In this document: positions 3,319 through 64,000 of the stretch, in pieces | How positions within the stretch are numbered: position 1 is the stretch's first letter | Layout: each line of letters opens with the position of its first letter | Origin: Psilocybe cubensis | Taxonomy: Eukaryota | Direction: 5' to 3' | Assembly (NCBI GenBank): GCA_017499595.2 | Contig: CM038998.1 | Coordinates: 3,224,001 to 3,288,000 of the forward strand | Length of the DNA stretch: 64,000 bases | The notes under the pieces: generated by a model | Seen by the model: only the letters and a program-made list of their open reading frames with translations | Database searches by the model: none | Told to the model about the DNA's origin: nothing | Position numbers and translations under genes: made by a program

Positions 3319-5551
3319 TTAGGCGGAACCAAGTGGTTGCAGCTCCAAATCAGCACTATCGGTGGGCACGGAGAGCACGCGGAGAGTGTTAGTGTGACCA
3401 AGACCACCTTTCCAGCCTTGTACAGCAACGATGGTGGATCCGGGGGTGATGATGTTGAGTGCAAGTGCACTGCGCAAACCGAATCGGATTCGGTTGTCGA
3501 CCTAAAATTCTGTTTAGTATGGTTTAAAATCACAAAGAAGAAAACTAACGTCAGTTTGCCATTGGTGAGTCTCGATGCCTCTGGGTTCAGGGTACCAGAA
3601 GGGGTAGCATCCTCGGTGCAAGTGAATTTGCCTGGAGGTCTGCTGGTTGCGGGTGACTGTATACAATTTATCTTCAGCACTTTGCGGTGTCAAGCAAAAC
3701 GGAACTAACCAGTGATGATGGGTACAGAAGGGCGATATTTAGAAACGAGGCGTGCAGTGTTTCCACTTGTTGAAAGAACAAGGATGGCACTAGCGCCTTG
3801 CTCGGAGGCAGCAGCAACAGCAGCCATTGCCACTGTCTCGGCAGTCTCGGTGGGTCGGGGTTGAATCGACCTGATATCGTCGTACAAAGGAGGGTAGCAA
3901 ATCGCGGCTTCAGCCAAAAGGCAAGTCTCAGCCATCATTAGAACTTTGAGTATGGTTCAGTGTTGATTGAGAATTTGTCTGAGAAAAAAAAACTAACCAG
4001 ATTGAATAGGGTAATTACCCTTGGCAGTCTCTCCGGACAACATAACACAGTCAGCACCGTCGAGAACGGCGTTGGCAACGTCGCTGACTTCAGCACGAGT
4101 GGGCCTTGGGTTATACTAGGTAAAGACTTTAGAAAAACGCAAAGGAGTTCGGTTTTAGGTGGAATTACCGTCATGGACTATCAACTAATTAGTATTGCGG
4201 CAAGTAAGATTGTTGAAAGGGACATACTTCAAGCATTTGAGTAGCAACAATGACGGGCTTTCCAACAATATTGCACTTTGCAATCATCATCTTCTGCGCC
4301 AGGAATACTTGACTGGCAGGGATTTCAATACCGAGATCACCACGAGCAACCATGACACCATCGGTTTCCTTCAAAATCTCATCAAAGTTGGCAACACCTT
4401 GTTCATTTTCGATTTTGACGATAATTTTGATGTTAGCACCATCAGGTCCGAGGACTGTGCGAATATCGCGGACATCCTGTCCGCGCCGAATAAATGATGC
4501 GAAGATCATGTCGACGCCGTTCTTGACACCAAACTGCAAATCAGCCTTGTCTTTTTCTGACAGAGCAGGGAGATCGACATCAGTTTTGGGAAGGTTGACT
4601 CCCTTGCGAGAGGAGATGTTTCCGGAATTCAAGGCGCGAACGCGAACGTTAGGCCCGTCGATCGACAAAACCAACAGGGAAAGAATTCCATCGTCGACAT
4701 AGATGAGTTTCCCGGGAGCACTAACTTTAGGGAGGTTAACCTAGCTAACGTGAGTTTCCCAAGATACATGTAAAAATGTGCAACATACGTAGTCAAGCCA
4801 CATAATCTGGTCATCGCAAAGCTCGCTGTATTTGGTGTCGGTAGTGATGGTGAATTCGTGGCCAGCGGCAATGGGCCACTATCAGATAATCTTAACATAT
4901 GAACACGGAAGTATTTGATCGAGAGTGACGTACGTCTTTGCCCTCCTTGGTCAGGCCCGTGCGAATCTCAGGTCCTTTCTACAAACTACGTCAGTGATTG
5001 CTCCGCGGAAAATGATCAGGCCCAGAGTTAAGACTTACAGTATCGAGAGCAATGGCTACGGGGCGTCCTGTGGGGTCGGCTACATCCAGAGTGAGCAAGG
5101 AAATCATAGATACAAGAGCGTAACACGCACCAGCAACCATCTTCCTGGTGTTATCAATGACGCTCTGGTGGTACTCATATGAGCCATGGGAGAAATTCAT
5201 GCGAACTTAAGTGTGGGCGTTAATCGTCAAACTGATAAAATTAAGACTTCGTGCGCACCAACATTAACGCCAGCGCGTCTGAGCTCAGCCAATTTCTCGA
5301 TAGAATTAACCTTGGGGCCTTGCGAGGAGTGAGAATGAAAAGGACTTTTGCCATTGGGGATGAAACACACCGATAGTGGCGATAATGGATGTCTGAAAGA
5401 ACGGTGAACAGATGAGATGTTACCTACTAGCATTCTCAGGCATACATACCTTGCGTTTGTGCTTGTTGGTGTCGCTGGCGAGCGGGGCGTGCTCAGTGCT
5501 CAGAGTCGAGTTCCATTCGAGTTGAGAACGAATTCCGTCAGTGGGGTACAT
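3319..5551 (-). CDS. PYK1: Pyruvate kinase, multi-exon
   Basis: Motifs [78 protein letters not shown] at 5551, TAA at 3319-3321. Confidence 0.95.
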
Positions 5552-7668
5552 GGTGGATGGAGAAAGGATGTCTTGGAGATGAAGGACGAGGAGACTATAG
5601 AGAGCGGAGGTAGAGGGGGAAAAGGTGAAAAGTTTTTGTGAAGCGTCTGGTTTTTGTTGCAATCGCTAATCGATAAGATGCGGTGCACGTTTGAGCAAGG
5701 ATCAGGCCTAATTATTTAATTGGGGCCCTTTTTATATCGGCCGTGGTGTTCGTATCTCCAATACACTGTGACGGACAAACTCAGACTGTCTATAACTTGT
5801 CTCTAGTCCTCAACGTTCACAATGCTTTCAGCTCTTTTATTCGTCGTTCCCTTTTCTTCCAGGCTTGCACGCATGTAATAGTGCTGCAGAATCTTGTCAG
5901 AGACAATGTTCGTTGGCCGCTTTTTCGTCTGAATATCTGCCAAGTATAAGCAGAGTACCAACAGTATTCCTCAAATATCTCCGCCCCACCCAATCGCAAT
6001 GCAAACATTCCATTAATCAGAATCTTCCTTATATACGCCGTATGTGCGTCGCGCTCTCCACAGGAGGGATACTTGGTACTTTACGTTGGATCGCGGTAGA
6101 TTGTTTTACTACTCTCCCCAAAAGATTGCTAGACGAGTAATAATTGCCAATTCATACCCAAAAATCGGCCAAAATCGTATGCAATCGTATATGCGGAGTC
6201 TTTAGTCAACACCCCTCTCGACAATTGCCACTCAATCGACTCGGACAAACGCATCCGACGAACCCTGTGTAACGAGGCGTAACGGTACCCGACGACACGG
6301 TGGTACCAGGTAGTCGATGTTCGTGCCTAACACCACTGTTGGGTCCGACTACACCGCCATTGTGCATTGCACATTGCACCAATGCCAATTCTCTTATTTT
6401 TATTACAACCTCTCTTTTCTTGAGGCTTTCTAGTCTCCGAAACCCTCAAATAGATTTTACCCTCCGTTCTCACCAATTCTAATTCCCACAGGAAGGCACC
6501 CTCAAAATGCCTCTGTCCAGCATCTGGCAGTCCGGAGACCCGCTCCTTGTCTCTTCCTTCAAAGTGCGTAGATCATGTCCGTCGCCGCCACATGTTTCTC
6601 AACTTGGGACTATTGGATTGGGCTGTATGGAACACCCTATCGTTAAGTGGGCATATTCAGACAGCGTTTAATCTATCTTATCGGTCATACTTTTTCCAGT
6701 AGTCAAAACTTACGTCCCGAAATTGTTGAAGAATTTGCTTTGATGTACTGCATGCATTTTGTTTGTTCGGCTGCCGTCCCGCCGCTTGACACGAAATTTT
6801 GCATTCCACAGCAAATGTTGCTACCTACGAAAGGGACCCAGGTGACTGCCATAGAAAGGTAACATAGGCTACTATGCTACATTATCCTCTGGGATGGTGA
6901 ATAATGAGTTCATCTCATGGTGGCGGATTTACAAATTGTTTGGTACGTGTTGTTTTAACTTATGACCTTTTTGGAGTACTTCACATTGTTGTAGTCTGAA
7001 AGGTCACTGCACTTTTTTCTTTGTGTGGATTGGCCGGACGACAGCTGCCAAGATGGTCCAGCGAAGATTATCTTAATGATGATGTTCTGAGGGCGAACAT
7101 AACTATTCTGTGCAGTCCAAAAATGTGTACGATCTCGCTATACGACAATCTCCTATCTACCTCCAATGACCGACTATTTGCTATTCTGACCGCCGCGCGC
7201 CGTACAAGAGTCCGGGACACCTGTCCCTGATTTTGCTGGATTGGTATAGCCTATACGGTAACACGATATATCACCGCATCCACGGTAGTCAAGGTATAAT
7301 CTTAAGTCGGCCATTGGACTGGAAATGTACCATTGGCATCCCAGGGGGCACTGTACTATGCTTCCTGAATGAAACGTACGGGGAAGTCAACTTTGCCCAA
7401 AAATGAAGATGAGAGCCGCATGGCGAGTAGGCTTAACGACCCGAATACGAACAGGCAGTGCTGGTGCCAGGTGATCATAATCCTATCAATCATGATGTGA
7501 AGAGTAGAAGGTTATACAAAGCCTGAAAAAAATAAGCTAGCGAACATTTTTCCTTGACTGCAAAATCACAAAGATATCGTCATGTGCGAACAATAATTAA
7601 TAAAGAAAACAGGAGACCATACAATGCGATATCGACAACGCTAACTAAATATACAATATTACATCTGC

Positions 7669-10427
<2,759 letters not shown>

Positions 10428-11803
10428 GACGGGAAATGGATGCAGGTGGTTTTGTTGCAGGTTGTTAATTGCAAAACGCGTGTTGGACGCGATGCTGACA
10501 TAATGGTCGAAAAAGAATACTTGCACAAACACCGAAAAATTTCCCACGCCCTCGCCTCCGAGCCTGTAAGTCAGGCATTCTAGTGTTACTTCCTTGATCT
10601 TTTTTGCACTTCATTATCTAGTGTATGAAATTCGTACCCTATCATGAAAGTCTATGCTTATTACCTGATCTCTGTCTCTGTTCCACAGTGCCTTAACCCC
10701 GCCCATAAATTTGTCGCGTTTCATTGAATTCAGTCACCAACGCCTCTCTACCTTCTTTCTGATATAACAAGTCTATGCGTGATCACCTTCACCAACCCAT
10801 GACATTAGGACTATGGGGTCTTGGGCATTCCCATGTGACTCGATATCGACTTTTATCGGAACGAGGAGTCGTTGGAGATTTCTGATTGACCACACACGTC
10901 AGAGTGCGATTGCTGCGATATTTCTGATATACGACTCGCGCGTGCGACGCTGTCCGGACTTCGGAACCTCGGTCTGCCAGCTGGTCTATGGTTTTCGTGG
11001 CCTCTGTCATTTGATCATTTGGCACCATGGTGTGATTCACATCATATTCTTGTTCGCGTTTTTGAACTCAATTAGTCGTTACAGAGCTCATGGGAATCCG
11101 GAGTTAAAAGGTACAAGTCAAGTCAGTGGACGGTCCATTTATGTCACTGTCCAGCCGGTCCACTTTCAAAAGCAGTCTGTCCTGCCGAGGATAAAGTTCA
11201 TGCTTGTAAGAACTTACTGTCGAAGGCTAGGGGAAACCTCTGGATGAACAACGTCCAAGTGTCGACCGTGATGACTATATTTCTCTCAATTGGAATTCGC
11301 CACCGGATAATAGCTTTATAGCAGATACGTAGAAGCCGAGGTTATACTCTTCATCATTTCGGACTTGACGTAGACAGCTTCTACTCTAGAATTGTTCCAT
11401 GCCAATAAAAATTTTTTGATGTGAGAATGCCAGAGGCAAATTTTGAATTGATACATCTTCGCCTCAAATGGGACCTGACGACCACAGCACAATAGTAAAG
11501 CATAGTGAAACCTACGTATGTGTACAACAGAAAACGAAGCTAGATAAAATGAGTGTAAAGTTCTATCAAAGACTGTCGAGAGAGAACTGTAGCTAAAATA
11601 AAGGTAGTTTAAAGAGCGTCAGGCAACAGGTCGCCACATAGTCAGAGTTAAAAGGTGCTTGTCGGATCAAGGCCTTGTGTGGGCAGTAGACAATTTTGGT
11701 GCTCCCCTAGCGAAGTAGAATGTGTTATAGAAATGACTGGCGGGAAAGATGAGAGCAGGTTTAATCGGTTGAGGTCGCAGAGCGTACCTAACGTCAGGGA
11801 ACC

Positions 11804-12425
11804 CTAGGCCTGGCTTTCTGTCCGTCTCCAGTCGACATTTCCCCGAGCAACGCTGTCTGACCGTCTCCAATCGACGTTGCCACGAGCATCATTCTCTGAC
11901 CGTCTCCAATCGACATTTCCGCGAACTTCATTCCCTGACCGTCTCCAATCAACGTTTCCCCTAGCATCGTTTTCTGACCGTCTCCAATCAACGTTGCCAC
12001 GGACATCGTTCTCTGACCGTCTCCAGTCGACATTGCCTCGAGCATCGTTCTCAGAACGCCTCCAATCGACATTTCCCCGAGCATCATTCTCTGAGCGTTT
12101 CCAATCGACATTGCCTCTAGTATCGACCTCTGAACGTTTCCAGTCAACATTTCCCCGCGTGTCGATCTCTGACCGTTTCCAGTCAACGTTTCCCCTGGAC
12201 TCGTTCTCCGAACGTTTCCAATCGACATTGCCCCGGGGGATTTCTGACCGTTTCCAGTCAACGTTTCCCCGAACAAGGTTGTCGGCCTCGGGAACCTGCA
12301 AATGTGAAAATAAGTTAGTGTAGAAAGGTATACAGAGAAAGGATGACACATACGGGGGCAGCCGCTACAGTCGAGGTCAAAAGGAATAACGATATAGCAG
12401 CTAGGTAACGTGAGTTGAACAGCAT
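11804..12425 (-). CDS. Secreted Kex2-processed repeat protein (KEP) precursor, 187 aa, 12 x GNVDW
   Basis: Exon 1 (12425-12354) encodes a signal-peptide-like MLFNSRYLAAISLFLLTSTVAAAP. A 58-nt GTATGT...CTAAC...CAG intron (12353-12296) follows. Exon 2 encodes 12 repeats of (spacer)-R-GNVDW-(K/R)R. CATAAAAA lies about 60 bp upstream of the ATG. Confidence 0.9.
11820..12275. repeat. 39-bp coding tandem repeat (12 units, one of 36 bp) inside the KEP gene
   Basis: Recurring TCCA(A/G)TC(G/A)AC(A/G)TT motif with about 39-bp periodicity. Confidence 0.95.
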
Positions 12426-46680: not shown

Positions 46681-49600
46681 TCATGAGTCGTCATGCTCGT
46701 TAGGGCGTCGTCCTCGTATGCTAAAGCGCGAGGGAGATGAAAGAATAGATGTCGTCCTCGTCATCTGCTCTCCAGAATGTGTCGAAGCACTACTGCTTAG
46801 GTTCGGATTGGATGATGCATCGAACTCGAAGCGCAGTCTGACAAGTCCTCCTTGTCGCAGTTCGACAAAGACATCTGCTGACGAAATACCTACTGGCTTG
46901 ATGTGACGCCAGATCTGCAAAGCAAAGTAGAAAATCAGGATGGGTAACTCAAATTATGAAACAATGAAGATTCCTACATCGATTTCTCCCTCGCCAATCT
47001 CTTTATCTTTCCCAAGAGTTTTGTGATCGTGAAGCCAGATGAACATTTTGGGCGTCATAGCAGACGCTGCAAAAATGAAAGATTCGTTCCTAAAACAATG
47101 AAGTAATGATCAGAGTACCGCAAGATACACAACGGCAATAAAAGCTCACCATTCTGGCGAATCGGTTTTGCCGGTATGCTTTGTTTTGTGCTCCTTATCG
47201 CCCAAGCGGACCGTGGCGTAAGGTTTGACGTCGTGGTGAGGAAGGTCTTTAGCATCCAGCACAGTGACTCGGAGAGTGCCTGGCTCATTGATGGCGACAG
47301 CTGCATGTCCATTACTTTCGGATGATGGGAAGTTTGCATGCCCCGACTGCATATGATCAGACACGCCAACCGGCTGAGAAGCTTGTCCAGTGGGCAAGTC
47401 CGCAGGCACACCGGCAGCTTCTTCTACCACGTCCTTGTCCCCTCCGCTGCGTTTGAATACACCAGTGACACCATGGAAAACACCCTTTCCGGCGTTAACG
47501 GGCAAGCCACCCAGAGTGGTCATCGCACGTCCAGCGGTAGTAAAGGTCGAAGTGTTCTTCCTCGATTTGGCAATGATTTCAGGCTGGAATACTAACCGCA
47601 CGCGGATTTGACCCTTTTCGCCGTGTTTCTGGCTGACGAGGTTGAGAGTGCGTTCTTGAGCCAGGAAAGGTTCGATGTCAGAAAGATCAATTTTAGCTGT
47701 TCCCAAGCTCTTGGCCTGTTCTATCTGGTTCCAATCAAAGAGCTCGAGTGAAAAGTCCGCATTGTATCGTGAAGGCTACAGCAAAAATGCACATCAGACG
47801 ACAAAGTTTGTTTACAGCGCAAGAGATACGCACCACAGAGACTTCAAAGTGTTCATTCCATTCGGGAGTAACTGTCTTCTTTTTAGTCTGGGACTTGAAA
47901 ACCTTTTGGCCATTGAGTTGGAAGACAGCATAAGGATCAGATTTTCCTGAACAACAATATTAGAATCCTAGTTATACACGCGACGAAACTCCACACATAC
48001 CTCCTCTGTCAACACCACGGATCTCATGGCCATCAATAAGATCAACACGCAGAATGCCTTGGTCTGAATATTTCAGGTCAAGATGCAGGTCTGAAGCTTG
48101 AAGACGATATCACATACTGTTGACACTTTCGCGTGGCTCCAGCTTGACGGGAACAGGGATATAGCGGGCCTCGACGGTCACAGATGATACATTCTTGCCA
48201 TCCTCATCCATAAGCTCATAGGTACGTGGACCCGACTGATCAAGTTAAAAAAAGTCAGAAAATGCATAAAGGAACTTTTTTTGAAAAAACGCACCATGGT
48301 TGCTTGCAGGAATGCTTTTGAATCGCCCTTCCATTCTGCAACGATATCATCCTTCGAGTTTTCGTCCGCCTCGTTCAAACGGAGCCAGACGCGTCCAAAG
48401 TCGACTTCCTTGACAAACCCTTCACCGACATAACCGAACTGGGCGTGCACACTGCGAGCCTTGACAGTGCTGAAGCATGGCCAGTACCCATCGTCAAGAA
48501 GCACTTCCACACGCCCCTTCTTTGCAAGTCTACCAGAGATCACATGGAACACAATAATTCCAGATTCTACACGAAAAAAACGAATGAGAATCAAGTTACA
48601 ATGTAAGAAAAACAAAAACGAAAAAGCTCACGTTGGGCAAGCAATTCCTCGTCGCTCATCTCGACAAATACTTCCTTCTTCTCTGGCGTAGAAGTCGCTG
48701 GCGTCGCTGGAGTAACAGGTGTAACGGGACTGGTCGGTGCACTCCCTCCAGAGTTCCTCCTTGCCGAGTCCGTTCCATTCGACTTCTGGGATTTCGAGCT
48801 CTTGGTCGATTGCCCAGAAATGCTCATCGAATCCGACGACTTGGCAGGCTTGACAGGGCTCTTCGGGTCGGACGTGATCGTCACACCCGGAGGAACATCG
48901 TGTCCGTCCGAAGACGAAGAGTCCGTCACGTAGCCGCCGTCGTCGTCGCCTCCCTGCTGACGCGCAAGCTGTCCCGCTTCAGTGTTCTGCGTCTCGAACT
49001 TGTGGAATTTGACGTTGAGCGTGGGGATGAATTCTGCCGAATAGTAGAGTGTTCCCTTGTGCGCGTTACCCTTGTCGAGACGTATAGGGTCGGCCATGGT
49101 CTTGACACCGCGTGATTGATAGCGGTGTTGTACGTCGTCTGGTGTTTCTGTAGCCAGGTCGGACACATGGAGGTCGACAGAGCCTAGTGATCGGTCTTTT
49201 GTCAAGTGTTGATAATCCATGCATTCGAGCATGAGAGTCTAAAAACAGGTCAGAAAGTGATTTAAATAATTCAAGAGGGAATGTTCCTAACCTCCTTCAA
49301 AGTGTGGACTTTACTCAAGCCTCAGTACGTTGTATTCCCCCCAAAGAAATGATAAAAGCTCACCAGGAATGTAAATAATCTGGTCCCAGACAGGATTCAA
49401 ATCTTCACGGAAATCAGCAAGGGGTTACTATAAACAGAACAGAACAAGCGCTCACTGTTATTGATAACCTCGGTTCTACCCTTTGTGACATTCTGTACTT
49501 GCACTCGGACATAAGGATCACTCTTGCCGCCCAGCGTGGCTTCTACGTTCCTAGAAACGCAAAAAATGCAATCAGCAACACAGTTCGACACCAAAACAAA

Positions 49601-52305
49601 CAAACAAGACAAACTCACTTTACATCAACCGCCTTGTCAATTACCAACTTGACGACACCAATGGGCGGTGCATACTGCTCGGAACCATGGAGCGCACCCG
49701 CCATGCTAAGCGGCTTCCACTCGGCCGACAACCTCACACGACCGGTCTTGCACCCGCTCAGAGGGAACCAATCCTTCCCAGCCTGACCACTCGACGCAAG
49801 CAGATCCTGCAGGGCAATCGTCATATAACCTACAACCGGGTCTTTCAAAAAGTCGCGGTCGTCGATAGCCTTGATGGTGACCGTCGCCGCGTTCTTGTCC
49901 GTGCATAGGTACTCGTATGAGGCTTCCCAGACGGGGTTGTTGGTGTGCTTGAAGCATGGGGTAGAATAAGCCGCGGATCGAGCGCCGTTGAGGTAGACTT
50001 TTGCGAGGGGGTTCAGATCGCCAGATAGCGACTTGGTGTGATCCAGCTCCTTGGCTTGATGGATAACCAGGCGCACAATGCCAACAGCTATTAACAAAAT
50101 CAAATACATCAGCGCGAACCAGAGTAAACACCCAGAAATACACGCACTGGAATCGAGCAATTCCTCTTTGCCCTCTTCAACTTCAACGACAGGATAGTAG
50201 TTGACATCGTAGCGCAATTCACCGCGTTCCTTTCCGTCCTTCAACAGTGGAGACACGAGATCCTCTTGCGTTGAATCCTCCAGCAATTTAGCTAATTCAA
50301 AGGTGGCAGAACCCATCAAAGTGTTCTTGCGGTGATCATTGTAATCAAGGACATTGAGATCCAGACGGTCCTTCAAGGAGTTGATAAGAATGTATTTAGT
50401 CTCCATCCATGTTGGGTTGTACCTATATCAATTGATAGATAAATTAGTACGAGAAGGCAAATATCAACAAATGGCGAAAAGAACGTACGTGTTTTTCTTG
50501 TACTTCGTCGCAGCCAGTTCAGCGCGGTTATTGATGGTCAAACTGACGTAAGGATCCGGAGTGCCACCACCGATTTTGGTGCCCGTGATTCCACGCGCAG
50601 AGCGCACGATAACCTGGATAACACCAATAGCAGCATCCAACGGTTTACCCGAAAGCATCTGCTCCAAGTTCAAGCTGAACACATTAGGGTCATACATCAT
50701 CGGCCCAAGCGTCGCGTGCGTCATATCTCTAATGAAGCTCGAGAGCCCTGGAATCTAGACCATTTTACGTCATTTTCAGTAATAAGGCCCAATAAGCACA
50801 TTCATGGAACGACGTACATTTGCAATATCGAATCCGAACGTTTCTCCACCGATAGGCTTGAGCACATATCCAATGACGGGTTTTTCCAAGAAACAAATGT
50901 CCACGACCTGGACGTGGGGGAAGTTGGACATGAGCTTCATGCGAATTCGCAGAAGCCCACTAAATGAAATGTCTTCCACTAGAATAGGCAGCGCCGCAGT
51001 CGCCAGACCCTTACCCAACCGCACTGAGAGCGTAATCTTCGGTTTAACCTGATCTAGAATCTGCCTCTCAGTCATCTCCGAGGTGTCTTTAGGGGTAAAC
51101 GATAGCCCCCAGTCCATCATTACAATGTCCTCTTCCGTTTTGGGGAAGGTGCGGACTTTGTCGATGCGCGGCGCTTTAGTGCCCAAAGTAAAGTGGGTCA
51201 ACCTCAGCGAATCGAGGAAGGCAGGTGTGTTGGTGCTCAGGATTTGGTCAACAGAAGAGACGATAGTTTGCGAGAGCACGGGCTCGTACATGAGCCAGAA
51301 CCGGTCGAGAAAGTTGTTTATCCAGTCAGCGGTCTCGTGCTCGGAAGCGAGACGCGTTTTGACGAGCTCGCGTTGAATGTCGTCGCGTGCGTAGCGTCTG
51401 ACACGCTCCATGGAGGTTGAGTAATATGTATTGCAGACGGCGAGCACGATGAAGAGCCATCCCCAACCAAATCTGAAGACGGTGAGGTAGTGTGTAGCCA
51501 AGACAGCCTAGATGGATCAGAAAATATATGAACGCGGCGTAGACAAGTGAGGTGGAAACGAGGCAAGTGGGGAGTGGGACAAGCTATTGATCAGCTTGGC
51601 ATCTTATGACGAGACGAAAACACGCACGAAGACAATAATGCCAGCATTATGATACCAGGTGCCGTAATACTGCTCTGAGAGGAACCTGTCGAGGATCCCC
51701 TTGTCCCGTTCCTCGCCCTCGGACAAGGGTGGATTGTCAATACCTGACATTTGCCGCCAGCCGACTTTGTACCAGTCAGGAATGACATATGGGCCTTTGT
51801 TGAAGGAGCCAGGGATTTCGTCTGCGGCCTCGTCCTGGATGTCCTGGGCAACTTGGTCTGTATCTTTGGCCGTGACGATGGGTTTCTTTTCGTCTTCACC
51901 ACCTGCGTCTTCAATGACGATGGTAGGCACTGCTGGCTGGGGCGACGGTGCAGGCTCCATTTTGAGCTCTAGAGTAGAAACACATTCAGTAAACGTGTAG
52001 ATTGGAATGTCGAGACTGTGGGCTGCGGAGCAAATGAAATAGTAATATGGAGGCACCGCACAAAAGTCAAACAAGAGAGGGGCTACAGCAGACGAGCGAC
52101 GAAGAAACGAACAGTACTTGCCTGTCTGAATGGGTGGTTGGGTCCTGACACTTTGCAGGTCCTCTTTACCCTTGCCAGCTTGTGCGCCCTTTTCCTGGGG
52201 GGAGGCGTCTGGGTCGAAAGAGTGGACAGCAGCGCCCTTTTCGGCATCCTTGCCCATAATAGCGTCCGGGGCGTTGTCTGCTACGACGTTGAGAAGAGCA
52301 GACAT
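46681..52305 (-). CDS. Tricalbin (SMP + multiple C2 domains, ER-plasma membrane tether)
   Basis: TM hairpin (FRFGWGWLFIVLAVC), SMP domain (ETADWINNFLDRFWLMYEP..FTLGTKAPRI) and several C2 domains (GGTPDPYV, GKSDPYVRV, KSDPYAVF). Confidence 0.93.
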
Positions 52306-52795
52306 GGCGGCGTAGACGATAGGAAGGGGCGATAAGGAAGGGTGAGAAACAGGAAGACGCGAATAAGAAGAGGTCGAGTGTGTGTGCTAAGTTAAGATGG
52401 TGTGCTACTACTTCTCTCGGAAAACGGACGGTTGACGCACGTGAGGAGGCGCGGCGTAACAGCCTGTCACCCCCCTCACTGTAAATGTGTCACGCTGACC
52501 GTCGTCTTCCATTTTGGGAAGGCGTGATGGTCGATCGTCACCTCGCTTTACGCATGTTTCGTACTCAACCTATTGCTCCCCGTTGCCTCTATACCTCTTT
52601 TATTCGCTTCTCCGTCTATCGTTACCGCTTTTGCTAATTTCTCTTAATTACAGATGCAACTATGACCTCATTTCCAAAGGCTTTGAATTGCCAGCAGCAG
52701 CAACATCAACAAATCCGATCAGGAATCTCTATGGACCTACGCTTGTGTTGGCTCTCATCTTTGTCTTGACAGTCCTCGCTCTTCTTCCTGGGGCA

Positions 52796-54479
52796 ATGGA
52801 AGAACTTCAAAGCATCAATAAGTCATCAATTCTGTTGGAGGTTGATGTTGAGAAAGGGCCGCCTCAGTCAGATGCAAGCAGGCTTCCGCTTCCCGCTCAG
52901 TCCAAAGGAGGTTCAGGGATCACGGTTTGCTACGTCGATGTGTGAGTCTTTCTGTTTTTACTTATATATTCCATTTCTAATGTAGTTTTATAGTTTTAAT
53001 ATGAAGAAAGCTGATTTGGTAGACCTGTGTCGCCAATACAAGCTTCCTGTTTCCGGTACAATCAAGGTTCTTATCGAGAGATTACAGGAGTTTAGTGGTC
53101 AGCGAGAACAATGGGACCGGTTAGCCTACTCTCTCTGTGCTTTCCTTCTAGGTGTTTATTATAGCTAATCTATTCCTACAAGACTCACTACAGGTGTTGC
53201 TCGTCGTTCTCATCTTGGGTTTAGCACCCATTCTTCTACAAAACCAACAGCCAGCCACAAAAAGTCAGTGCAGCGTCGTGAAAAAATGTTTTTGGAGTCA
53301 ACAAATACAGAAAATGGCAATCCGAAATCTCTTCCATCTATTCTATCAACGGCAGTTCAGCCCTCTCATCAATGGTGTCAAACTCGTCGAGCTGCCGATC
53401 TTGATTGGGTACGCATGTTGTATATTTGTTTAGTTGCCCTACAACTCATACTAAGCCCTCATTTGATGCTACAGGCACGTTATATTGTCAATTTATACCC
53501 ATATCGTAGAGAAGAAACTAGGAATAGGTTGGCAGAGCGTGATGCGGCACAATTTAATCAGAAACGACTGGTAAGTAGTAAACATTCTTATTATTGTTTT
53601 ATCATTAATTGTATCTATATATCTAGTTCTCAAGCTCAAATGACGATGACGTTAAGGCTGGGATTGAGATAGCGAATGGCCATCTCTTAAAAATTGTCAA
53701 CTGGGTTGAAGCTGGGACTACTTCTCCTCATCCAACTCCATCGCCCTCTCATCAGCTTCAACCAAGCACATCCCACTTTTCGGTGGCAGCTACTAAGGAT
53801 TTGCAAAATTCTCAAGGTCATTCAATTTCTGCTTCTACCACAACCACTCCTACTCGCACAGTAACTATGGCTAGTGGATCTATTACTTTTTCATCATCCG
53901 ATGTTCCACCACCACCCGCTGTTTCATTTGCTTCTGATATTCCTGGATTGAATCGCATGTGGGACGATACAAGCATTTATTGGGATGGATATTCTGTGCT
54001 TACAATTAAGGGAACGGCCATTCCTATTGTATACTGGAAGGAGATATACACCTCTAAGGGTAGTGTTGAATGGAAGCCGAAGCAGTGGGAGTCACTCAAA
54101 GGGAAATTTTTTGATTGGAAGGTAACTGGCTAATGTTCATTCTTGAATCTTGATGAATATGTTTTGACCGCTTTTTGCTCAGATTCTTGTCCATCAATGG
54201 CGACAAGGATCTCCCGAAGATTTCTGGGCTAAATTCACCAAAGACGGCAAGATACTGGGCTATCGTCAAATTCTTGATCAACTCGCTGAACAAAGAACTG
54301 CTCATGATGCACTTTTTGCACAACAGATTATGCACGAGTATGGTAATCAATTTTCATCTATTTTTTCTTATGTTAAGAATGGGACAAGACATGTCAAGAC
54401 AAAACCTTGTCATATTATTAAGCAGTACCGTAGGATGAAGGGTCTCATTAACGAAGACGACAATGATGAGGATAATTAG
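52796..54479 (+). CDS. SAP-domain protein with Trp-rich C-terminal domain (element gene, copy 1)
   Basis: Spliced exons give MKKADLVDLCRQYKLPVSGTIKVLIERLQEF (SAP-like), then PPPPAVSFASDIPGLNRMWDD..IPIVYWKEIY..W..W..FFDWK-ILVHQW..FWAKF, ending TAG at 54477-54479. The start codon is tentative. Confidence 0.7.
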
Positions 54480-54528
54480 TTGATTATGTTTTTGCTCCAA
54501 TATCTTACATCAATTATATATAATTTTA

Positions 54529-56212
54529 CTATGCACAGTGACATGTTCGTCCACACATAAAGCACTTGACTGCAGGTGGTTTATCAGAATTAAAAAAGTC
54601 TTCTCGACGCTGTGTTGGGTTATCATTCCAAGATATTAGATATCTCACAATAGTGAGATTAGAAAATTCAGTACTCCATCCACCCCATTCACAAATAGTG
54701 CGAATAGACCAACGTCTTTCTGATGAAAGGTATTGGCAACCACCACGACGGAAAGAGTGTGTTCCATATGGTATTGGATCAACGCCAATATCAAGAAGAT
54801 TGTTTCGGAACAGCTCAAGAAATTGCTCTGATGTCTATTTGAATGAGAAATAAGTAGAAGCATTTGTATAAATAGCATACCATGGGTATGTTATCAGCCG
54901 ATGGCCTATCCCCAGATGCAATCTTTCGAAAAATGTAGCCATCGGTAATCTCGCTTGCATCAAGCCAATTTGCCATTGCACGAACAGGACAAAGATGAGC
55001 CTCATTTTCTGCTAGTAACCGCAGATAAAATGGCTTAATTCCTAAAGAAATATATATTAGAATAGACTTCAAATAGTTTAAAAAAGTTTTACCGCCATGC
55101 TGATGTGTTTTGCGAAATGGTAGTGTAAGAACCAGTCCAGGTGGATTCATCTGATAAACAATATGTTCACGTCGGATTTTCAATACCTCATCTGATCGGA
55201 GTAGACAGAGAAAAGCAATTGTATAAATTGCCTCAAGAGCGCGTCGGGCTAATCCTCCTCCCCAATGGTTGCTATCTTGTTCTTTTCTAGACCCTGGAGC
55301 ATAGGGTTTGATATCATAGTTTTCGGATTTATGATTTTCATCATAAAGAGCTTTTAGAGTAGCTGAGGTGATTGCGCGTGCACTTGTTGGTGTTTCACCA
55401 TTTCGAATCTAAAAAGGAGATATATAGTCAAAACTACAGCCAATCAAGCAATTTGAGTGCAACTTGAACATTACCTTCCGAGCACGCAAACTCATCATGT
55501 ATGTTGCTACGGTGTCGGATACTGATGGATTTCCTATCATTTTACCCGTAAGCTCATTTCTTCTCCACCTATCTGAGCCTAAACCAAGTTCACGTCCAAA
55601 AAGATATGTCATAGACGCTCTCATCTTTTGGCCATGTACATAGGAATCACGGACAACATGTGTTGGCTTTAAAGTTCCATCAAGATAAATATCATCGCAT
55701 CTAGAAAATACGGTAGTTTGAAAAAAATTCCAATAGAGAAAATCAATAAGCTTACTTGTCCATAATCCATGCCGCAATGAAAAAAGGTGCATCGTCGGGT
55801 GGATTGCAACAAGCAAAATCTTCACGTTTTTTAATCATGTTCTTGCTAATCAGAAACTTGATACATTGCTTGATAAGACTAGAATAAAAACAAAATAAGC
55901 GCACTATTTAGAAATGAAGACAGGATAGTATTACCGCTGATAATCAGCATCAGTTTTGTCTGTGACTCCTTTAGATGCACCAGTAATTGTATCTCGCCAC
56001 TTGGAAGCTGTTGGATTGTGGCTATCTAAATCTTCACTAGAAAGATCATGAAGTGACAGATTGGGCAGAGTCTCTGTTTCACCGTCGAGATCGTTTTCAA
56101 CGTCTTCTGGTATAAATGGTTCATTTTCAATAGTAGGAGAAGGACTGCCAGATATAATGGAGTTTAGACCGGCATAGATTGAGTTTGAGGGCACCACCAT
56201 TGAGGAAAGCAT
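54529..56212 (-). CDS. Tyrosine recombinase (Crypton-like), six exons, copy 1
   Basis: Catalytic set read in frame across introns: FLCLLRSDEVL (R), LPFRKTHQ (K), YGTHSFRRGG (HxxR), CEWGGW (W), TIVRYLIS (Y). Also HLCPVRA and a C-terminal CFMCGRTCHC. Confidence 0.9.
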
Positions 56213-56427
56213 AGTAGGGATTAGATTTAAGAAATTGTAGCGGAAAGGAGTACACTGATTAGAATATATACTTTTGTAAAGCTTACTGCGGACAAAACAG
56301 ATAGGAGTAGTAGACTCATTTGAAACACATTGTAAGAAGGCAATTTACAGCAAGGAGGCGATCTAGTGGCATTATGGTGAAGACACGCTCAAACACGTAA
56401 AAAAACAAATATAAGCCATACCTAATT

Positions 56428-58028
56428 CTAAATACCCTCCATCATATTACTTGGAATCCATGCACGTAGCTTTGGAAGACAATTTTGAATCCAAGAATCG
56501 ACACTTGATTGATCAAATCGAGGATTTTCTTGAGCCGCTCGAAGCCTATTAATGCCATCTTGAATAATGTCTTTTGGAAAATCAATCTTGACACGTAATT
56601 CCGGAGAGCGCTTGCTAGATTGTCGCTTCCCAACAATTTGGCCAAAAAACATGTGGCCATAATAATGAAAGCCAATATCCCGAGCTCGAGCAATTTGCAT
56701 TGCCGACCTAAGTGCAATTCCAGGAAGAATGCTGTTAGACAGGTGGCGTAACATAACCACAGCATCTGTACCCCATACGAAATGATCTTCGGCAAATAGC
56801 ATCATGGCTGGAAGAGATAGTTGACGAGAAAAAAGAACTGGAATGAGATCATCGGATACAACAGGATGGAGATAATAGCTTAGTATATCGGAAGAGGGAA
56901 AGTCTGCCGGAAGATTGTGGGCCAAAGATGGGCAGCGGCGAGGTAAATGAAATGAAGAATTGCTATGAGCTTCACTTATTAGCTGGCTTCGCCATTCATG
57001 TAGGAATTGTTGCTGTGCTTCTTGACTGTAGTTGTTTTCCTTAAGGCCACACGCTAGTGATCGACCAAAACCAGCTTTTGCAAGTCCAAGTGCTGTTTCA
57101 ATGCCACAGCCTTTGACTCCACCCTTAATAAAAAAAAGTTATAATACAATTAATAGAAAGAATAAATTGGAAAATTACAGGATTGTAGTCGCCACCAACC
57201 AATAGTGCAATAAGAACCATATCCTCGCTATTCATCTGAAGAGCTTGAAGAATATCAGATGATCGATATACAACCACCTGTTCATCATCGGACACATCTT
57301 CATCGCTATTAAAATGCCATATTAAAATTTAGATTGAGTTGAGCTAAAAGTGTACTTACATTCGCAAGACAGTTGTGGTACCAAATACAATACTATCAGA
57401 GTCTTCTGTAAGAACGGCATCGAGATAGTCCTCCTTTGTAAGTCTGGCAAGCTCCGCTTCAGCTTCACCAGGTGCCTATTCCCATAATATGTATGAGCCG
57501 CCCAAGCCTTAGGCTACTGCAATAACCAATAAAGAACATACCTCACACCAAATAAAACCGTAAGCATCTAACAGCGATTTGAAATCAGCTTCAATCCAGT
57601 GGCGATTTCCCCTTATGTTCTTTTTGCGCTTTATACTTGGTTTGTTGGGGCCATCAAAGACAAAGATGGGCAGAATAGGAAGCGAGTATAGGCGGCTACA
57701 GCGAGCATTTAGAGTAGCAAGCTCCATATTCTTTGTAGCACCGTGTCGGTAGCATGCACGGTAAATCCACCCCCTATTGTCAATAACACCGAATCAATTT
57801 ATGTTTTTGAAAAAGAAATCAACAATATATACATACATTGCATCAACACCAAGCCTATATCCTCGGGTTCCTTGACGGTTTGACATAAATCCATCCTCAA
57901 CAGCCAGACGTTGAAACGAGGCTCGTGTTGCTACAGGGTCTAGTAGCTACATAAATCCAATCTGTCAGCAGCTACGTGCAAGAGTCATAGAAAGTCATAC
58001 GCACCTTCCACAGGCCTTTAACGCCCAT
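56428..58028 (-). CDS. XPG/Rad2-family structure-specific nuclease, GEN1/Yen1-like, copy 1
   Basis: MGVKGLWK, RLGVDAMGW, PIFVFDGPNKPSIKR, APGEAEAELA, VLTEDSDSIVFG, and the H2TH motif LLVGGDYNP-GGVKGCGIETAL. The acidic catalytic residues appear intact. Confidence 0.85.
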
Positions 58029-58954
58029 CGTATGGAGGCTAAACGAAAGCTAGATCAATAGCGGACAAAAGATAGATATAAGATAAACCCACCCGAAATG
58101 TTTTGCAAATGTCTAAGCATCAATGTCTGTGAACAGAAACGCATACAGACCACGATAATGAGCCAAACTATTACAAAAGGGGTATTATTTGAGCAAAGAT
58201 TGTGATCTACACAAAAAACTCAAGAGTTCTAGCTGTAATTTAAAATAAATCATATTAATTTTGTAAAAGCGGAGTAGTAGAACAAATGCACGGCAATAAA
58301 CACCTCATGCTAGCCATACAGAAGCGCCTCGGCCCAGGGATGATCCTTAGTTTCTTCTGTACGGCTAGCATGTGGTGCCTAGCAGACACGGCAATATAAT
58401 AGAATAATATTTTTCAGTACTTGAAAAGCACAACCATAGGCCTGTGTACGTGTCTGCATGCATGCGAAGAAAGGATTTGAGGTGGCGGCAGTGATGCAAG
58501 GAAAGATGATGGATGGTGTGAATGTGTATCTATAGCTTATACTCAGTAATACGAATAAAATCAAGAATCAAAGAAGAGGGCACTGGCAGCCTAGTGTATG
58601 CCCAGGCATGAGTATTCCTGGGCTGCCATTGTGCGACGAAAAGGATGGGGGTATTCCATAATAAAGTATCAGAACACACCTAGATTCCAATTCTATCCTC
58701 TACGTAGCACCCTAAATCAAACAATCTAGCTTGCGCTGCAGGGCAATTTGCATGACTAAACGGCTCCGTTGAGCGACAACACTGCAAAAAAAATGCTAAG
58801 ATACTTACCGGAGTGAGCCTCTTGACCAACCTACGAGACAGACGTATCTCATAAATTATAGCACCACACAGCTGATGGAGGGAGATGTGCATGGATGGGA
58901 CGCAAGGAGGAGGTGCATGAACGGGAGAGAGCAGGAATCATCGATTCAACCAAC

Positions 58955-59065
58955 ACGCGTGCCAGCACTACACGTGATTGGACGTGCTGATTGTAATTCA
59001 CGCGACTCCTGTAAATTCACGCGACTCCTGTAAGATTCACGCGACTCCCTGGTTAAAACACGCGT
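58955..59065. repeat. Three direct repeats of ATTCACGCGACTCC flanked by two ACGCGT sites
   Basis: Repeats at 58996-59009, 59015-59028 and 59035-59048, each closely preceded by TGTA. ACGCGT at 58955-58960 and 59060-59065. Confidence 0.85.
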
Positions 59066-59927
59066 TACGCACGTTGTATATGGCAGTGTCGTGCCTCGGC
59101 AGCAGGCATTAGTGTAGTACGTGAGATAACAAGGTGTGAACGTCATTCTCTCACTATGAACTGTCTTTTTTTACAGTAGAACTGTCTTTTATTGGCCCAA
59201 TTGAGGTAAGCTTGATGCCGTATTTGCCTTCTGATCGTCATTTCTGAGCCTTGGCTCAATTTCGTAGTTTCCAATCTCGCCAATTAGTCAATACGTTAGT
59301 CACACCAATCCACGGCAATCCACCCTACGTAAAAAAGAATGTTTTATTGTTCAATTCTACGGTTATGGTGTGTAGTGCGGCATTGAACCTTAAGCTTAGC
59401 CAAACTCAAAACCCACTGCCCTCCTGCGAGGAATTTCTCTATGGAACGGGTCCCTTGAACGTGCTCCAGCAAACTCTAAGTTTTTACAGAAGGTCAGAAT
59501 CTGAGTCGTAATAATATGTCATATTAGTTAGATCCGGTAAACTACAAATCAGCACGAATATGTAGCTTTAAAACAAGCCTTGTTCCCCCTCTCCTTCTTT
59601 CCATCTTTCTGCGTCCGTCGTCGGTGTCAAAGCATCTCGAAAAAAATGCCTGTTGCAATTGATTCATCCGCCCTAGTATGGCAGTGAGTAGGGTTTTATG
59701 TACTATCTGGTCGCAAGCTTGCTCCATGCTTTTACTGTTACTTGTGCCCTCAGAACTTTTCGTTTTTCTTGCTGCTGCCATCCCGAGGCCCTCCACGGCG
59801 ACGCCGTTTGAACCCGTTTTGAGTGATCGAGGGCACCTCGGCACACCTCTCGTGCGAGGGTTGTGCGAGGGTTAGGGTCGATCGTAACGCTGTGACCGAT
59901 GGCGCCGATCGCTTTGTCAGGCTGTGC

Positions 59928-59981
59928 CAACCGTCTTTCTGCTCGGTCGCAGCTGTACTTCTCTCGGAAAACGGACGGTTG
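59928..59981. repeat. Inverted repeat CAACCGTC-N38-GACGGTTG centred on the copy 1/copy 2 junction (putative recombination site)
   Basis: Arms at 59928-59935 and 59974-59981. The symmetry centre is 59954/59955 and the junction is 59955/59956. Confidence 0.65.
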
Positions 59982-60342
59982 ACGCACGTGAGGAGGCGCG
60001 GCGTAACAGCCTGTCACCCCCCTCACTGTAAATGTGTCACGCTGACCGTCGTCTTCCATTTTGGGAAGGCGTGATGGTCGATCGTCACCTCGCTTTACGC
60101 ATGTTTCGTACTCAACCTATTGCTCCCCGTTGCCTCTATACCTCTTTTATTCGCTTCTCCGTCTATCGTTACCGCTTTTGCTAATTTCTCTTAATTACAG
60201 ATGCAACTATGACCTCATTTCCAAAGGCTTTGAATTGCCAGCAGCAGCAACATCAACAAATCCGATCAGGAATCTCTATGGACCTACGCTTGTGTTGGCT
60301 CTCATCTTTGTCTTGACAGTCCTCGCTCTTCTTCCTGGGGCA

Positions 60343-62026
60343 ATGGAAGAACTTCAAAGCATCAATAAGTCATCAATTCTGTTGGAGGTTGATGTTGAGA
60401 AAGGGCCGCCTCAGTCAGATGCAAGCAGGCTTCCGCTTCCCGCTCAGTCCAAAGGAGGTTCAGGGATCACGGTTTGCTACGTCGATGTGTGAGTCTTTCT
60501 GTTTTTACTTATATATTCCATTTCTAATGTAGTTTTATAGTTTTAATATGAAGAAAGCTGATTTGGTAGACCTGTGTCGCCAATACAAGCTTCCTGTTTC
60601 CGGTACAATCAAGGTTCTTATCGAGAGATTACAGGAGTTTAGTGGTCAGCGAGAACAATGGGACCGGTTAGCCTACTCTCTCTGTGCTTTCCTTCTAGGT
60701 GTTTATTATAGCTAATCTATTCCTACAAGACTCACTACAGGTGTTGCTCGTCGTTCTCATCTTGGGTTTAGCACCCATTCTTCTACAAAACCAACAGCCA
60801 GCCACAAAAAGTCAGTGCAGCGTCGTGAAAAAATGTTTTTGGAGTCAACAAATACAGAAAATGGCAATCCGAAATCTCTTCCATCTATTCTATCAACGGC
60901 AGTTCAGCCCTCTCATCAATGGTGTCAAACTCGTCGAGCTGCCGATCTTGATTGGGTACGCATGTTGTATATTTGTTTAGTTGCCCTACAACTCATACTA
61001 AGCCCTCATTTGATGCTACAGGCACGTTATATTGTCAATTTATACCCATATCGTAGAGAAGAAACTAGGAATAGGTTGGCAGAGCGTGATGCGGCACAAT
61101 TTAATCAGAAACGACTGGTAAGTAGTAAACATTCTTATTATTGTTTTATCATTAATTGTATCTATATATCTAGTTCTCAAGCTCAAATGACGATGACGTT
61201 AAGGCTGGGATTGAGATAGCGAATGGCCATCTCTTAAAAATTGTCAACTGGGTTGAAGCTGGGACTACTTCTCCTCATCCAACTCCATCGCCCTCTCATC
61301 AGCTTCAACCAAGCACATCCCACTTTTCGGTGGCAGCTACTAAGGATTTGCAAAATTCTCAAGGTCATTCAATTTCTGCTTCTACCACAACCACTCCTAC
61401 TCGCACAGTAACTATGGCTAGTGGATCTATTACTTTTTCATCATCCGATGTTCCACCACCACCCGCTGTTTCATTTGCTTCTGATATTCCTGGATTGAAT
61501 CGCATGTGGGACGATACAAGCATTTATTGGGATGGATATTCTGTGCTTACAATTAAGGGAACGGCCATTCCTATTGTATACTGGAAGGAGATATACACCT
61601 CTAAGGGTAGTGTTGAATGGAAGCCGAAGCAGTGGGAGTCACTCAAAGGGAAATTTTTTGATTGGAAGGTAACTGGCTAATGTTCATTCTTGAATCTTGA
61701 TGAATATGTTTTGACCGCTTTTTGCTCAGATTCTTGTCCATCAATGGCGACAAGGATCTCCCGAAGATTTCTGGGCTAAATTCACCAAAGACGGCAAGAT
61801 ACTGGGCTATCGTCAAATTCTTGATCAACTCGCTGAACAAAGAACTGCTCATGATGCACTTTTTGCACAACAGATTATGCACGAGTATGGTAATCAATTT
61901 TCATCTATTTTTTCTTATGTTAAGAATGGGACAAGACATGTCAAGACAAAACCTTGTCATATTATTAAGCAGTACCGTAGGATGAAGGGTCTCATTAACG
62001 AAGACGACAATGATGAGGATAATTAG
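60343..62026 (+). CDS. SAP-domain protein, copy 2
   Basis: Same sequence as 52796-54479. Confidence 0.7.
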
Positions 62027-62075
62027 TTGATTATGTTTTTGCTCCAATATCTTACATCAATTATATATAATTTTA

Positions 62076-63759
62076 CTATGCACAGTGACATGTTCGTCCA
62101 CACATAAAGCACTTGACTGCAGGTGGTTTATCAGAATTAAAAAAGTCTTCTCGACGCTGTGTTGGGTTATCATTCCAAGATATTAGATATCTCACAATAG
62201 TGAGATTAGAAAATTCAGTACTCCATCCACCCCATTCACAAATAGTGCGAATAGACCAACGTCTTTCTGATGAAAGGTATTGGCAACCACCACGACGGAA
62301 AGAGTGTGTTCCATATGGTATTGGATCAACGCCAATATCAAGAAGATTGTTTCGGAACAGCTCAAGAAATTGCTCTGATGTCTATTTGAATGAGAAATAA
62401 GTAGAAGCATTTGTATAAATAGCATACCATGGGTATGTTATCAGCCGATGGCCTATCCCCAGATGCAATCTTTCGAAAAATGTAGCCATCGGTAATCTCG
62501 CTTGCATCAAGCCAATTTGCCATTGCACGAACAGGACAAAGATGAGCCTCATTTTCTGCTAGTAACCGCAGATAAAATGGCTTAATTCCTAAAGAAATAT
62601 ATATTAGAATAGACTTCAAATAGTTTAAAAAAGTTTTACCGCCATGCTGATGTGTTTTGCGAAATGGTAGTGTAAGAACCAGTCCAGGTGGATTCATCTG
62701 ATAAACAATATGTTCACGTCGGATTTTCAATACCTCATCTGATCGGAGTAGACAGAGAAAAGCAATTGTATAAATTGCCTCAAGAGCGCGTCGGGCTAAT
62801 CCTCCTCCCCAATGGTTGCTATCTTGTTCTTTTCTAGACCCTGGAGCATAGGGTTTGATATCATAGTTTTCGGATTTATGATTTTCATCATAAAGAGCTT
62901 TTAGAGTAGCTGAGGTGATTGCGCGTGCACTTGTTGGTGTTTCACCATTTCGAATCTAAAAAGGAGATATATAGTCAAAACTACAGCCAATCAAGCAATT
63001 TGAGTGCAACTTGAACATTACCTTCCGAGCACGCAAACTCATCATGTATGTTGCTACGGTGTCGGATACTGATGGATTTCCTATCATTTTACCCGTAAGC
63101 TCATTTCTTCTCCACCTATCTGAGCCTAAACCAAGTTCACGTCCAAAAAGATATGTCATAGACGCTCTCATCTTTTGGCCATGTACATAGGAATCACGGA
63201 CAACATGTGTTGGCTTTAAAGTTCCATCAAGATAAATATCATCGCATCTAGAAAATACGGTAGTTTGAAAAAAATTCCAATAGAGAAAATCAATAAGCTT
63301 ACTTGTCCATAATCCATGCCGCAATGAAAAAAGGTGCATCGTCGGGTGGATTGCAACAAGCAAAATCTTCACGTTTTTTAATCATGTTCTTGCTAATCAG
63401 AAACTTGATACATTGCTTGATAAGACTAGAATAAAAACAAAATAAGCGCACTATTTAGAAATGAAGACAGGATAGTATTACCGCTGATAATCAGCATCAG
63501 TTTTGTCTGTGACTCCTTTAGATGCACCAGTAATTGTATCTCGCCACTTGGAAGCTGTTGGATTGTGGCTATCTAAATCTTCACTAGAAAGATCATGAAG
63601 TGACAGATTGGGCAGAGTCTCTGTTTCACCGTCGAGATCGTTTTCAACGTCTTCTGGTATAAATGGTTCATTTTCAATAGTAGGAGAAGGACTGCCAGAT
63701 ATAATGGAGTTTAGACCGGCATAGATTGAGTTTGAGGGCACCACCATTGAGGAAAGCAT
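62076..63759 (-). CDS. Tyrosine recombinase, copy 2
   Basis: Same sequence as 54529-56212. Confidence 0.9.
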
Positions 63760-64000
63760 AGTAGGGATTAGATTTAAGAAATTGTAGCGGAAAGGAGTAC
63801 ACTGATTAGAATATATACTTTTGTAAAGCTTACTGCGGACAAAACAGATAGGAGTAGTAGACTCATTTGAAACACATTGTAAGAAGGCAATTTACAGCAA
63901 GGAGGCGATCTAGTGGCATTATGGTGAAGACACGCTCAAACACGTAAAAAAACAAATATAAGCCATACCTAATTCTAAATACCCTCCATCATATTACTTG

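Follow-up and report, generated by a model that had tools for sequence, protein, structure and literature searches.

Cryptons, as described in the accessible text of PMC3212892, carry a tyrosine recombinase (YR) gene with introns, lack long terminal repeats, end in 4-6-bp terminal direct repeats and are proposed to move as a circle. Two Crypton groups have an accessory C48 peptidase gene in common, which closely parallels the arrangement reported here, and the main text of that paper mentions neither XPG nor a nuclease gene. Of wider interest is how Crypton-type elements gain copies, and how they integrate where element and target have next to no homology. Starships (PMC10104507, PMC11162782, bioRxiv 10.64898/2026.09.21.753150) are likewise mobilised by a YR and, in the available portions of these reports, show a short target core, no footprint, intact cargo and tandem insertions; their circle has been demonstrated, and a circle bearing the junction integrates with the YR alone (bioRxiv 10.64898/2026.09.21.753150). 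In phaeovirus EVEs, too, an element that integrates by a YR has its own gene for a Holliday junction resolvase, discussed in the accessible text of PMC13236599 in connection with concatemer replication intermediates. In fungal DNA transposons of heterogeneous Agaricomycotina lineages a single accessory enzyme, TET/JBP, is present or absent (available text of PMC12730594). On the enzyme side, the nearest described system is GEN1 of Chaetomium thermophilum (5CO8, 5CNQ, 6GRB; PMC4695337), whose active form in the accessible part of that paper is the N-terminal 1-487 fragment.

We analysed a window of 64,000 nucleotides (the whole stretch) of Psilocybe cubensis contig CM038998.1, in which a candidate GEN1/Yen1-type nuclease gene lies on the minus strand at 58028-56428. 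The splice model has six exons (58028-58005, 57946-57837, 57773-57542, 57475-57360, 57305-57179 and 57123-56428) separated by GT-AG introns of 54-66 nt, and its product of 434 aa, with no internal stop, is identical to database protein P0001, a Psilocybe cubensis entry that its source labels a GEN-like flap endonuclease. The first-pass annotation had described intact XPG-N and XPG-I acidic motifs, and these hold up: both domains match Pfam above cut-off (XPG_N E 1.6e-8, XPG_I E 1.4e-19), and all seven residues of the acidic active-site set tabulated in PMC5499597 are kept (D43, D85, E126, E128, D147, D149 and D200). The N-terminal motif that it quoted is also present in the spliced protein. 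GEN1_C gave no Pfam match in the 434-aa nuclease and was matched in its clade relative P0202.

The best solved relative of the nuclease in a PDB sequence search was fungal GEN1 (E 4e-47, versus about 1e-17 for Rad2/FEN1), a value at which the likeness, judged from the sequence, is not due to chance. An AlphaFold2 model (pLDDT 89.5, pTM 0.90) retrieved fungal GEN1 chains as its top six fold matches, with TM-scores over the query of 0.72-0.75 compared to 0.54 for XPG and 0.51 for FEN1; the fold alignment with 5CO8 spans 447 columns. The helical arch is short, with 41 residues from D85 to E126 exactly as from D79 to E120 in the solved fungal GEN1, versus 72 residues for the human FEN1 arch span D86-E158 (PMC5499597 table). 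The protein also has a free N-terminal G2 and a wedge aromatic, Y49, that aligns with F44 of the solved fungal GEN1, and three C-terminal strands in the model (363-370, 378-383 and 423-427) form a chromo-like section. Sequence and predicted fold thus assign the protein to the GEN1/Yen1 type and not to the FEN1, XPG or EXO1 types, with a catalytic core and a chromo-like C-terminal section and without a regulatory tail. It shares with C. thermophilum GEN1, as described in the accessible text, the arch length, the wedge aromatic, the unmodified N-terminus and the three-strand C-terminal section in addition to the best sequence and fold match, and corresponds to the active 1-487 fragment (PMC4695337); by sequence and model comparison it differs in being a natural tail-less, multi-copy, element-borne paralogue in which GEN1_C is unmatched. 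The kept residues predict a catalytically active enzyme.

The YR gene follows in the same orientation (56212-54529, minus strand; six exons, 469 aa in the splice model), its start 215 bp past the nuclease stop codon, as the first-pass annotation had approximately stated. Its motifs R, K, HxxR, W and Y were read by eye; the family profile matches Cre weakly (E 0.001), and the fold of a homologue, P0086, matches Cre with E 7e-10. We found 254 relatives of this YR, and among the 120 listed all named ones are from Agaricomycetes. A spliced nuclease-YR fusion in the window copy was considered and set aside, as no route was found with the donor patterns tried. Convergent with the YR is a SAP-domain partner gene (52796-54479, plus strand; splice model of ~461 aa, start codon uncertain; Pfam SAP E 1.6e-8). 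The conserved C-terminal domain of its product gave no family match, and an ESM Atlas search with the C-terminal part returned a best score of 0.79 and no lead. Across loci the SAP gene is much more constant than the nuclease, and is convergent, divergent or upstream in different ones.

To the other side of the nuclease extends a 1.9-kb right arm (58029-59955) without a recognised gene, presumably the promoter side of the nuclease and YR. A 14-bp repeat occurs there in three copies at 58996-59048. Five ACGCG sites lie at 58955-59065, ~1 kb upstream of the nuclease, three of them inside the 14-bp direct repeat; we take them to resemble yeast G1/S promoter boxes. A common cell-cycle promoter was rejected, the cluster not having been seen in the other elements.

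These genes belong to an element of 7,547 bp, hereafter element A, of which copy 1 (52409-59955) is repeated exactly, with zero mismatches, by copy 2 (59956-64000, continuing to window-equivalent 67502). Within the window copy 2 contains the SAP gene (60343-62026, plus), the YR gene (63759-62076, minus) and the 3' tip of a second nuclease gene. The left host junction has the core TACTT (52409-52413, plus), and the head-to-tail junction (59918-60013, core 59956-59961) equals the predicted circle junction. Around it, within 60 bp, lie two 8-bp inverted pairs (59928-59935/59974-59981 and 59918-59925/60006-60013), which may be binding arms. The genome holds five near-identical copies of element A: a dimer on C1, a dimer on C4 and a single copy on C5. 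One C4 copy carries two substitutions, and the nuclease genes are identical in all five. Judged from the assembled sequence, a dimer created by the assembly is unlikely because the C4 dimer has different flanks and two substitutions in one copy.

Host and head-to-tail junctions have 5 bp in common on C1, 6 on C4 and 5 on C5, and a fourth element A site, in run X7, begins at the same base, which gives the common core ACTT. The C5 site is empty in all four runs aligned, the joint skipping exactly 7,547 bases with five letters that fit both sides; 26 raw reads of run X12 cover it. Runs X12, X8 and X10 have almost no depth over element A, and run X7 has it at another site, at about single-copy depth and with 51 substitutions. 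Because of these junction and empty-site data we read the repeat as a core common to element and target and not as a target duplication, the pattern expected if a YR integrated an excised circle. The circle-type junction is present inside the dimers, and the single-copy run X7 has no junction row (contigs only). The YR is the sole integrase of element A, which has no RT or DDE gene and no long terminal repeats; neither an origin nor a replication gene was found in it.

Element A is accordingly Crypton-like in the broad sense, and it is not a CryptonF: its YR (searched as the four window YR exons, P0086, P0090 and P0168) matches neither NDC10_II nor GCR1_C, and it has a separate SAP gene. It differs from Starships in being a 7.5-kb basidiomycete element with an internal YR, no DUF3435 match and a circle that is predicted from junctions, where theirs has been demonstrated. 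The phaeovirus elements, in the accessible text, encode an A22-like resolvase and their own replication genes, whereas element A would be a three-gene transposon with a captured host GEN1. TET/JBP is another enzyme in DDE-type elements, and the available text of PMC12730594 mentions none of XPG, GEN1, Crypton or tyrosine recombinase. Across the accessible text of PMC3212892, PMC13465315, PMC12730594, PMC10799480 and PMC11162782 we found no mention of XPG, and in the freely accessible full-text literature searched we found no paper on a GEN1/XPG gene in a Crypton-like element.

The surroundings of the copies can be described briefly. To the left of the window element lies a host gene (47149-52305, minus) with several C2-like domains, tricalbin-like by eye, and the insertion is ~100 bp upstream of its start. 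The single C5 copy (G000:C5:2048724, L001:1501) sits 92 nt past the stop codon of one gene and ahead of another. From motifs read by eye, we take the former to be telomerase reverse transcriptase-like and the latter glutathione peroxidase-like. An RNA-like contig spans the empty C5 site, and the insertion may change the 3' end of the telomerase reverse transcriptase-like transcript. The runs listed as carrying element A include no RNA run, and the RNA-like run that was aligned is without it. Elsewhere in the window, at 11739-12283, about eleven degenerate 39-bp tandem units overlap an open frame.

An XPG_I search of the genome gave at least 18 matches at at least 17 loci (both lower bounds), five host-type and 12 others. 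Three of the host-type loci we take, from their translations, to be RAD2-, EXO1- and FEN1-like. The other two are host YEN1 (G000:C10:2165594), whose last frame is of 873 aa and which adjoins a tuberin-like gene, and a second long GEN1-like gene (G000:C2:2050481, L050-L051) with its own well-supported orthologue clade; both lie among ordinary host genes. The latter sits between genes named by eye as RAD54-like and KAE1-like. The nuclease of element A is therefore not the Yen1 orthologue of the genome, host YEN1 lying elsewhere and in a separate clade (SH-aLRT 98). Host YEN1 extends 637 aa beyond its core and has 6 full CDK consensus sites in this tail, versus 0 sites in the 434-aa protein. In yeast (and not in mushrooms), loss of the CDK sites leaves Yen1 constitutively active and nuclear, with more crossovers, according to the available text of PMC3988869. 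A further XPG_N match at G000:C7:2973018-2973290 has no XPG_I match.

All 12 of the non-host GEN1-like loci found (at least 12 exist) lie within ~3 kb of a YR, and the YRs belong to three families: element A accounts for five copies, X for two, Y for three and D for two. Elements X and Y, whose YR matches NDC10_II and whose core is AGAAC, stand in the order X-Y-X-Y on C10, and a lone Y lies on C11. The array (G000:C10:492051-524850, L037-L041) consists of CryptonF-like elements with a period of 16,394 bp at 99.99% identity; it is a hetero-dimer joined at the common core and later doubled. Elements D, on C6 and C11, have a YR ~30% like that of element A, with a weak match to DUF3435 (E 0.012, under cut-off). 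Since their 3,072-bp nuclease module is 92% identical and their YRs are only 72-75% identical, the sequences point to exchange of the module between elements. Tandem arrays occur at four loci and in two YR families, so the elements do meet their own copies. Another element of 6 kb, with ~450-bp terminal direct repeats, lies at two loci, G000:C5:2034952-2041345 and C8:2522638-2528961, at 97.8% identity, the C8 copy directly upstream of the nuclease-less YR relative.

Beyond this genome, in four of the 223 nuclease homologues one gene model comprises the nuclease followed by a YR (two A-type, two D-type). These models, in which annotation may have fused neighbouring genes, place the pair in further genomes. 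One of them combines a nuclease of the element A clade with a D-type YR. Three of the seven element-borne nuclease types are broken: that of X lacks the exon bearing the first aspartate, that of D_C6 has one stop and that of L094 two. The first-pass proposal of an element-borne nuclease of Yen1/GEN1 type is upheld.

We placed the homologues in a FastTree tree of 210 rows (202 of the 223 proteins, which passed a coverage filter, and 8 models) and in an IQ-TREE quick search with 58 chosen rows. The element-borne nucleases fall in two short-form clades, one with A and L088 (SH-aLRT 99) and the other with X, Y, D and L094 (SH-aLRT 97), outside both host YEN1 (98) and the second host gene (100), so that the phylogeny suggested in the first-pass annotation does separate element clades from host ones. 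The two short-form clades may or may not be sisters (support 0.79), under a model susceptible to long-branch attraction. In these clades the median length is 484 and 474 aa, against 854 aa on the host side. The full set of seven acids is present in 21 of 26, 48 of 55 and 64 of 69 ungapped rows of the three groups, respectively. The clades span several genera; that all short-form proteins are element-borne would be an extrapolation from the minority whose genomic context is known.

In guide-based models, introns at codons 8, ~122 and ~161 are common to the element-borne nucleases and both host genes, a match that shows capture as genomic DNA. In such models a further intron, at codon 44-45, occurs in A, D, Y, L088 and L094 and in neither host gene; because it is found in both short-form clades, it favours one old capture of a host gene over repeated recent ones. 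A recent capture from host YEN1 was rejected (43% identity, saturated dS, separate clades), as was a viral origin, viral contigs having given distant FEN1-like matches alone (best E 5e-15). Between D_C6 and D_C11 the nuclease has a dN/dS of 0.28 (95% bootstrap 0.15-0.53) despite the stop in D_C6; the YR exons give 0.03-0.12. The selection check proposed in the first-pass annotation could thus be answered in part: purifying selection on the nuclease is indicated by this one young pair of family D, the sole measurable one, the other four of five comparisons being at or near saturation.

A metagenome scan with the YR alignment retained 80 of 344 loci, 69 of them distinct at 95% identity. The nuclease, sought by tblastn and an unfiltered HMM search on contigs that are short and leave element ends undefined, was present in 2 of the 80, L088 (intact-looking) and L094 (two stops), in both upstream of and co-oriented with the YR. 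The count stayed at two when only loci with longer DNA ahead of the YR were taken, 21 having 1.5 kb or more and 16 having 2.2 kb or more, so that 14 of the latter 16 are without it. A homologue of the SAP gene was found in 49 of the 80. In P. cubensis itself, no nuclease was found within 30 kb around each of the two closest YR relatives (C7, 69%; C8, 56%), and the SAP gene was present. In the metagenome relatives, pieces upstream of the YR resemble, by eye, casein kinase I (L088:2909-3256), histone H3 (L111:1396-1791) and ubiquitin (L107:1852-2178), which suggests that host gene pieces have been captured there.

A natural deletion was found in the sister family. Element Z on C13 equals X minus bases 4330-5969, the nuclease segment, with the 5' flank of the nuclease kept, and is 89% identical to X over the YR, which in Z likewise matches NDC10_II. 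It forms a trimer of 6,378-bp units that are 99.9% identical (G000:C13:2119917-2139054, L259-L261). A 1.7-kb fragment of Z lies at C8:32214-33950. Because the nuclease-less Z formed a trimer, tandems do not need the nuclease in cis, where it is dispensable; Z may have been supplied in trans, from Y, from A or by the host enzyme. The first-pass suggestion that the nuclease defines an unusual transposition mechanism is not supported: most related YR elements lack the gene, an outcome that the first-pass annotation had itself named as refuting, and the nuclease-deleted Z still amplified. The pairing of nuclease and YR, which recurs across element families, looks like an optional helper and not a core mechanism.

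We tentatively favour, at somewhat less than an even chance, a role of the nuclease as an old, selected and optional resolvase that removes the branches which replication and recombination leave around circles and tandem copies. In an agaric Crypton-like transposon of this kind, the YR, probably with the SAP protein, would carry out the strand exchanges that recombine the short core of a putative excised circle with the same core in the target (ACTT, 4-6 bp common). An ancient genomic capture of a fungal YEN1/GEN1 would have retained the junction-cutting core together with the chromo-like domain, while the tail with its cell-cycle control sites was lost. The predicted enzyme would then cut four-way and fork-like branches during replication and homologous recombination, presumably at times other than the brief anaphase period to which the host enzyme is confined, and as a result circles would be freed, copies would segregate and crossovers would be favoured. 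We count for the branch-clearing role the GEN1-type features of sequence and fold, the 6 CDK sites in the host tail against 0 here together with the yeast CDK-site mutants (accessible text of PMC3988869), the position of all 12 non-host loci beside a YR, the four joined gene models, the acids kept in the clades, the dN/dS of 0.28, the module swaps between YR types and the tandem arrays at four loci. Against it stand the Z trimer and the three broken nuclease types; replicating circles are hypothetical for an element in which neither an origin nor a replication gene was found, and loss of the tail may also have removed a nuclear import signal.

The nuclease might instead act during integration, finishing as an optional rescue those reactions in which the YR stalls at a Holliday junction on 4-6-bp targets, with nuclease-less relatives using host YEN1/MUS81 or a supply in trans. 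The 4-6 bp common to target and circle junction at four sites, the strict adjacency to YR genes and the finding of the defective X only beside an intact Y would all fit, and in bacteria CTX phage and Endo III offer a precedent in which a half-reaction junction is acted on by an outside factor (available text of PMC3442271). We nevertheless hold such a rescue to be rather unlikely, since Starship circles integrate at short cores with the YR alone (bioRxiv 10.64898/2026.09.21.753150), Xer recombinases keep nucleases away from their junction (PMC3442271), a resolvase would by itself give no direction, one nuclease clade pairs with different YR types and the junction sequences are clean, with no sign of a second enzyme. 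A more specific hybrid route, in which the YR makes the first strand exchange at the 4-bp core and a captured, cell-cycle-independent GEN1 then resolves the junction, so that no matched overlap is needed and nuclease-less relatives borrow host YEN1 or a nuclease in trans, strikes us as distinctly unlikely; if true, it would be the first eukaryotic transposon found with a dedicated integration-step resolvase, and would permit wide-target integration. At the opposite extreme, obligatory two-enzyme transposition, in which the YR could not complete integration without its own nuclease, would explain the co-orientation, the 215-bp gap and the four joined gene models, but the 14 of 16 informative relatives, the C7 and C8 relatives and the Z trimer, all without nuclease, make it very improbable.

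Two further explanations assign the nuclease no part in movement. As cargo beneficial to the host, an extra unregulated structure-selective nuclease would aid DNA repair in its carrier, which agrees with its dispensability in cis for movement, with purifying selection, with the DNA-repair homologues carried by a Starship (accessible text of PMC10104507) and with the suppression of mus81 damage sensitivity by YEN1-ON (PMC3988869, in part). We consider this unlikely: all 12 short-form loci found stay inside YR elements, with none found domesticated, element A is absent from other strains, and YEN1-ON is itself harmful under MMS (same source). That the nuclease is a neutral passenger, free of any selected function, in a slot ahead of the YR that readily captures genes is suggested by the casein kinase-, histone H3- and ubiquitin-like pieces that occupy the same slot elsewhere (by eye) and by the frequent decay and loss of the nuclease; it becomes quite improbable in view of the intact frames and catalytic residues retained despite long branches (host YEN1 is 43% identical), a dN/dS below 1 and the codon 44-45 intron, which points to one old capture.

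A young, strain-variable element of 7.5 kb that occurs naturally with and without the nuclease allows a direct test of how Crypton-type elements gain copies and integrate at such targets. Many of the "PIN domain-like" GEN1 paralogues in mushroom annotations are probably element cargo, and natural tail-less GEN1 enzymes of this kind could raise the crossover rates of their hosts.
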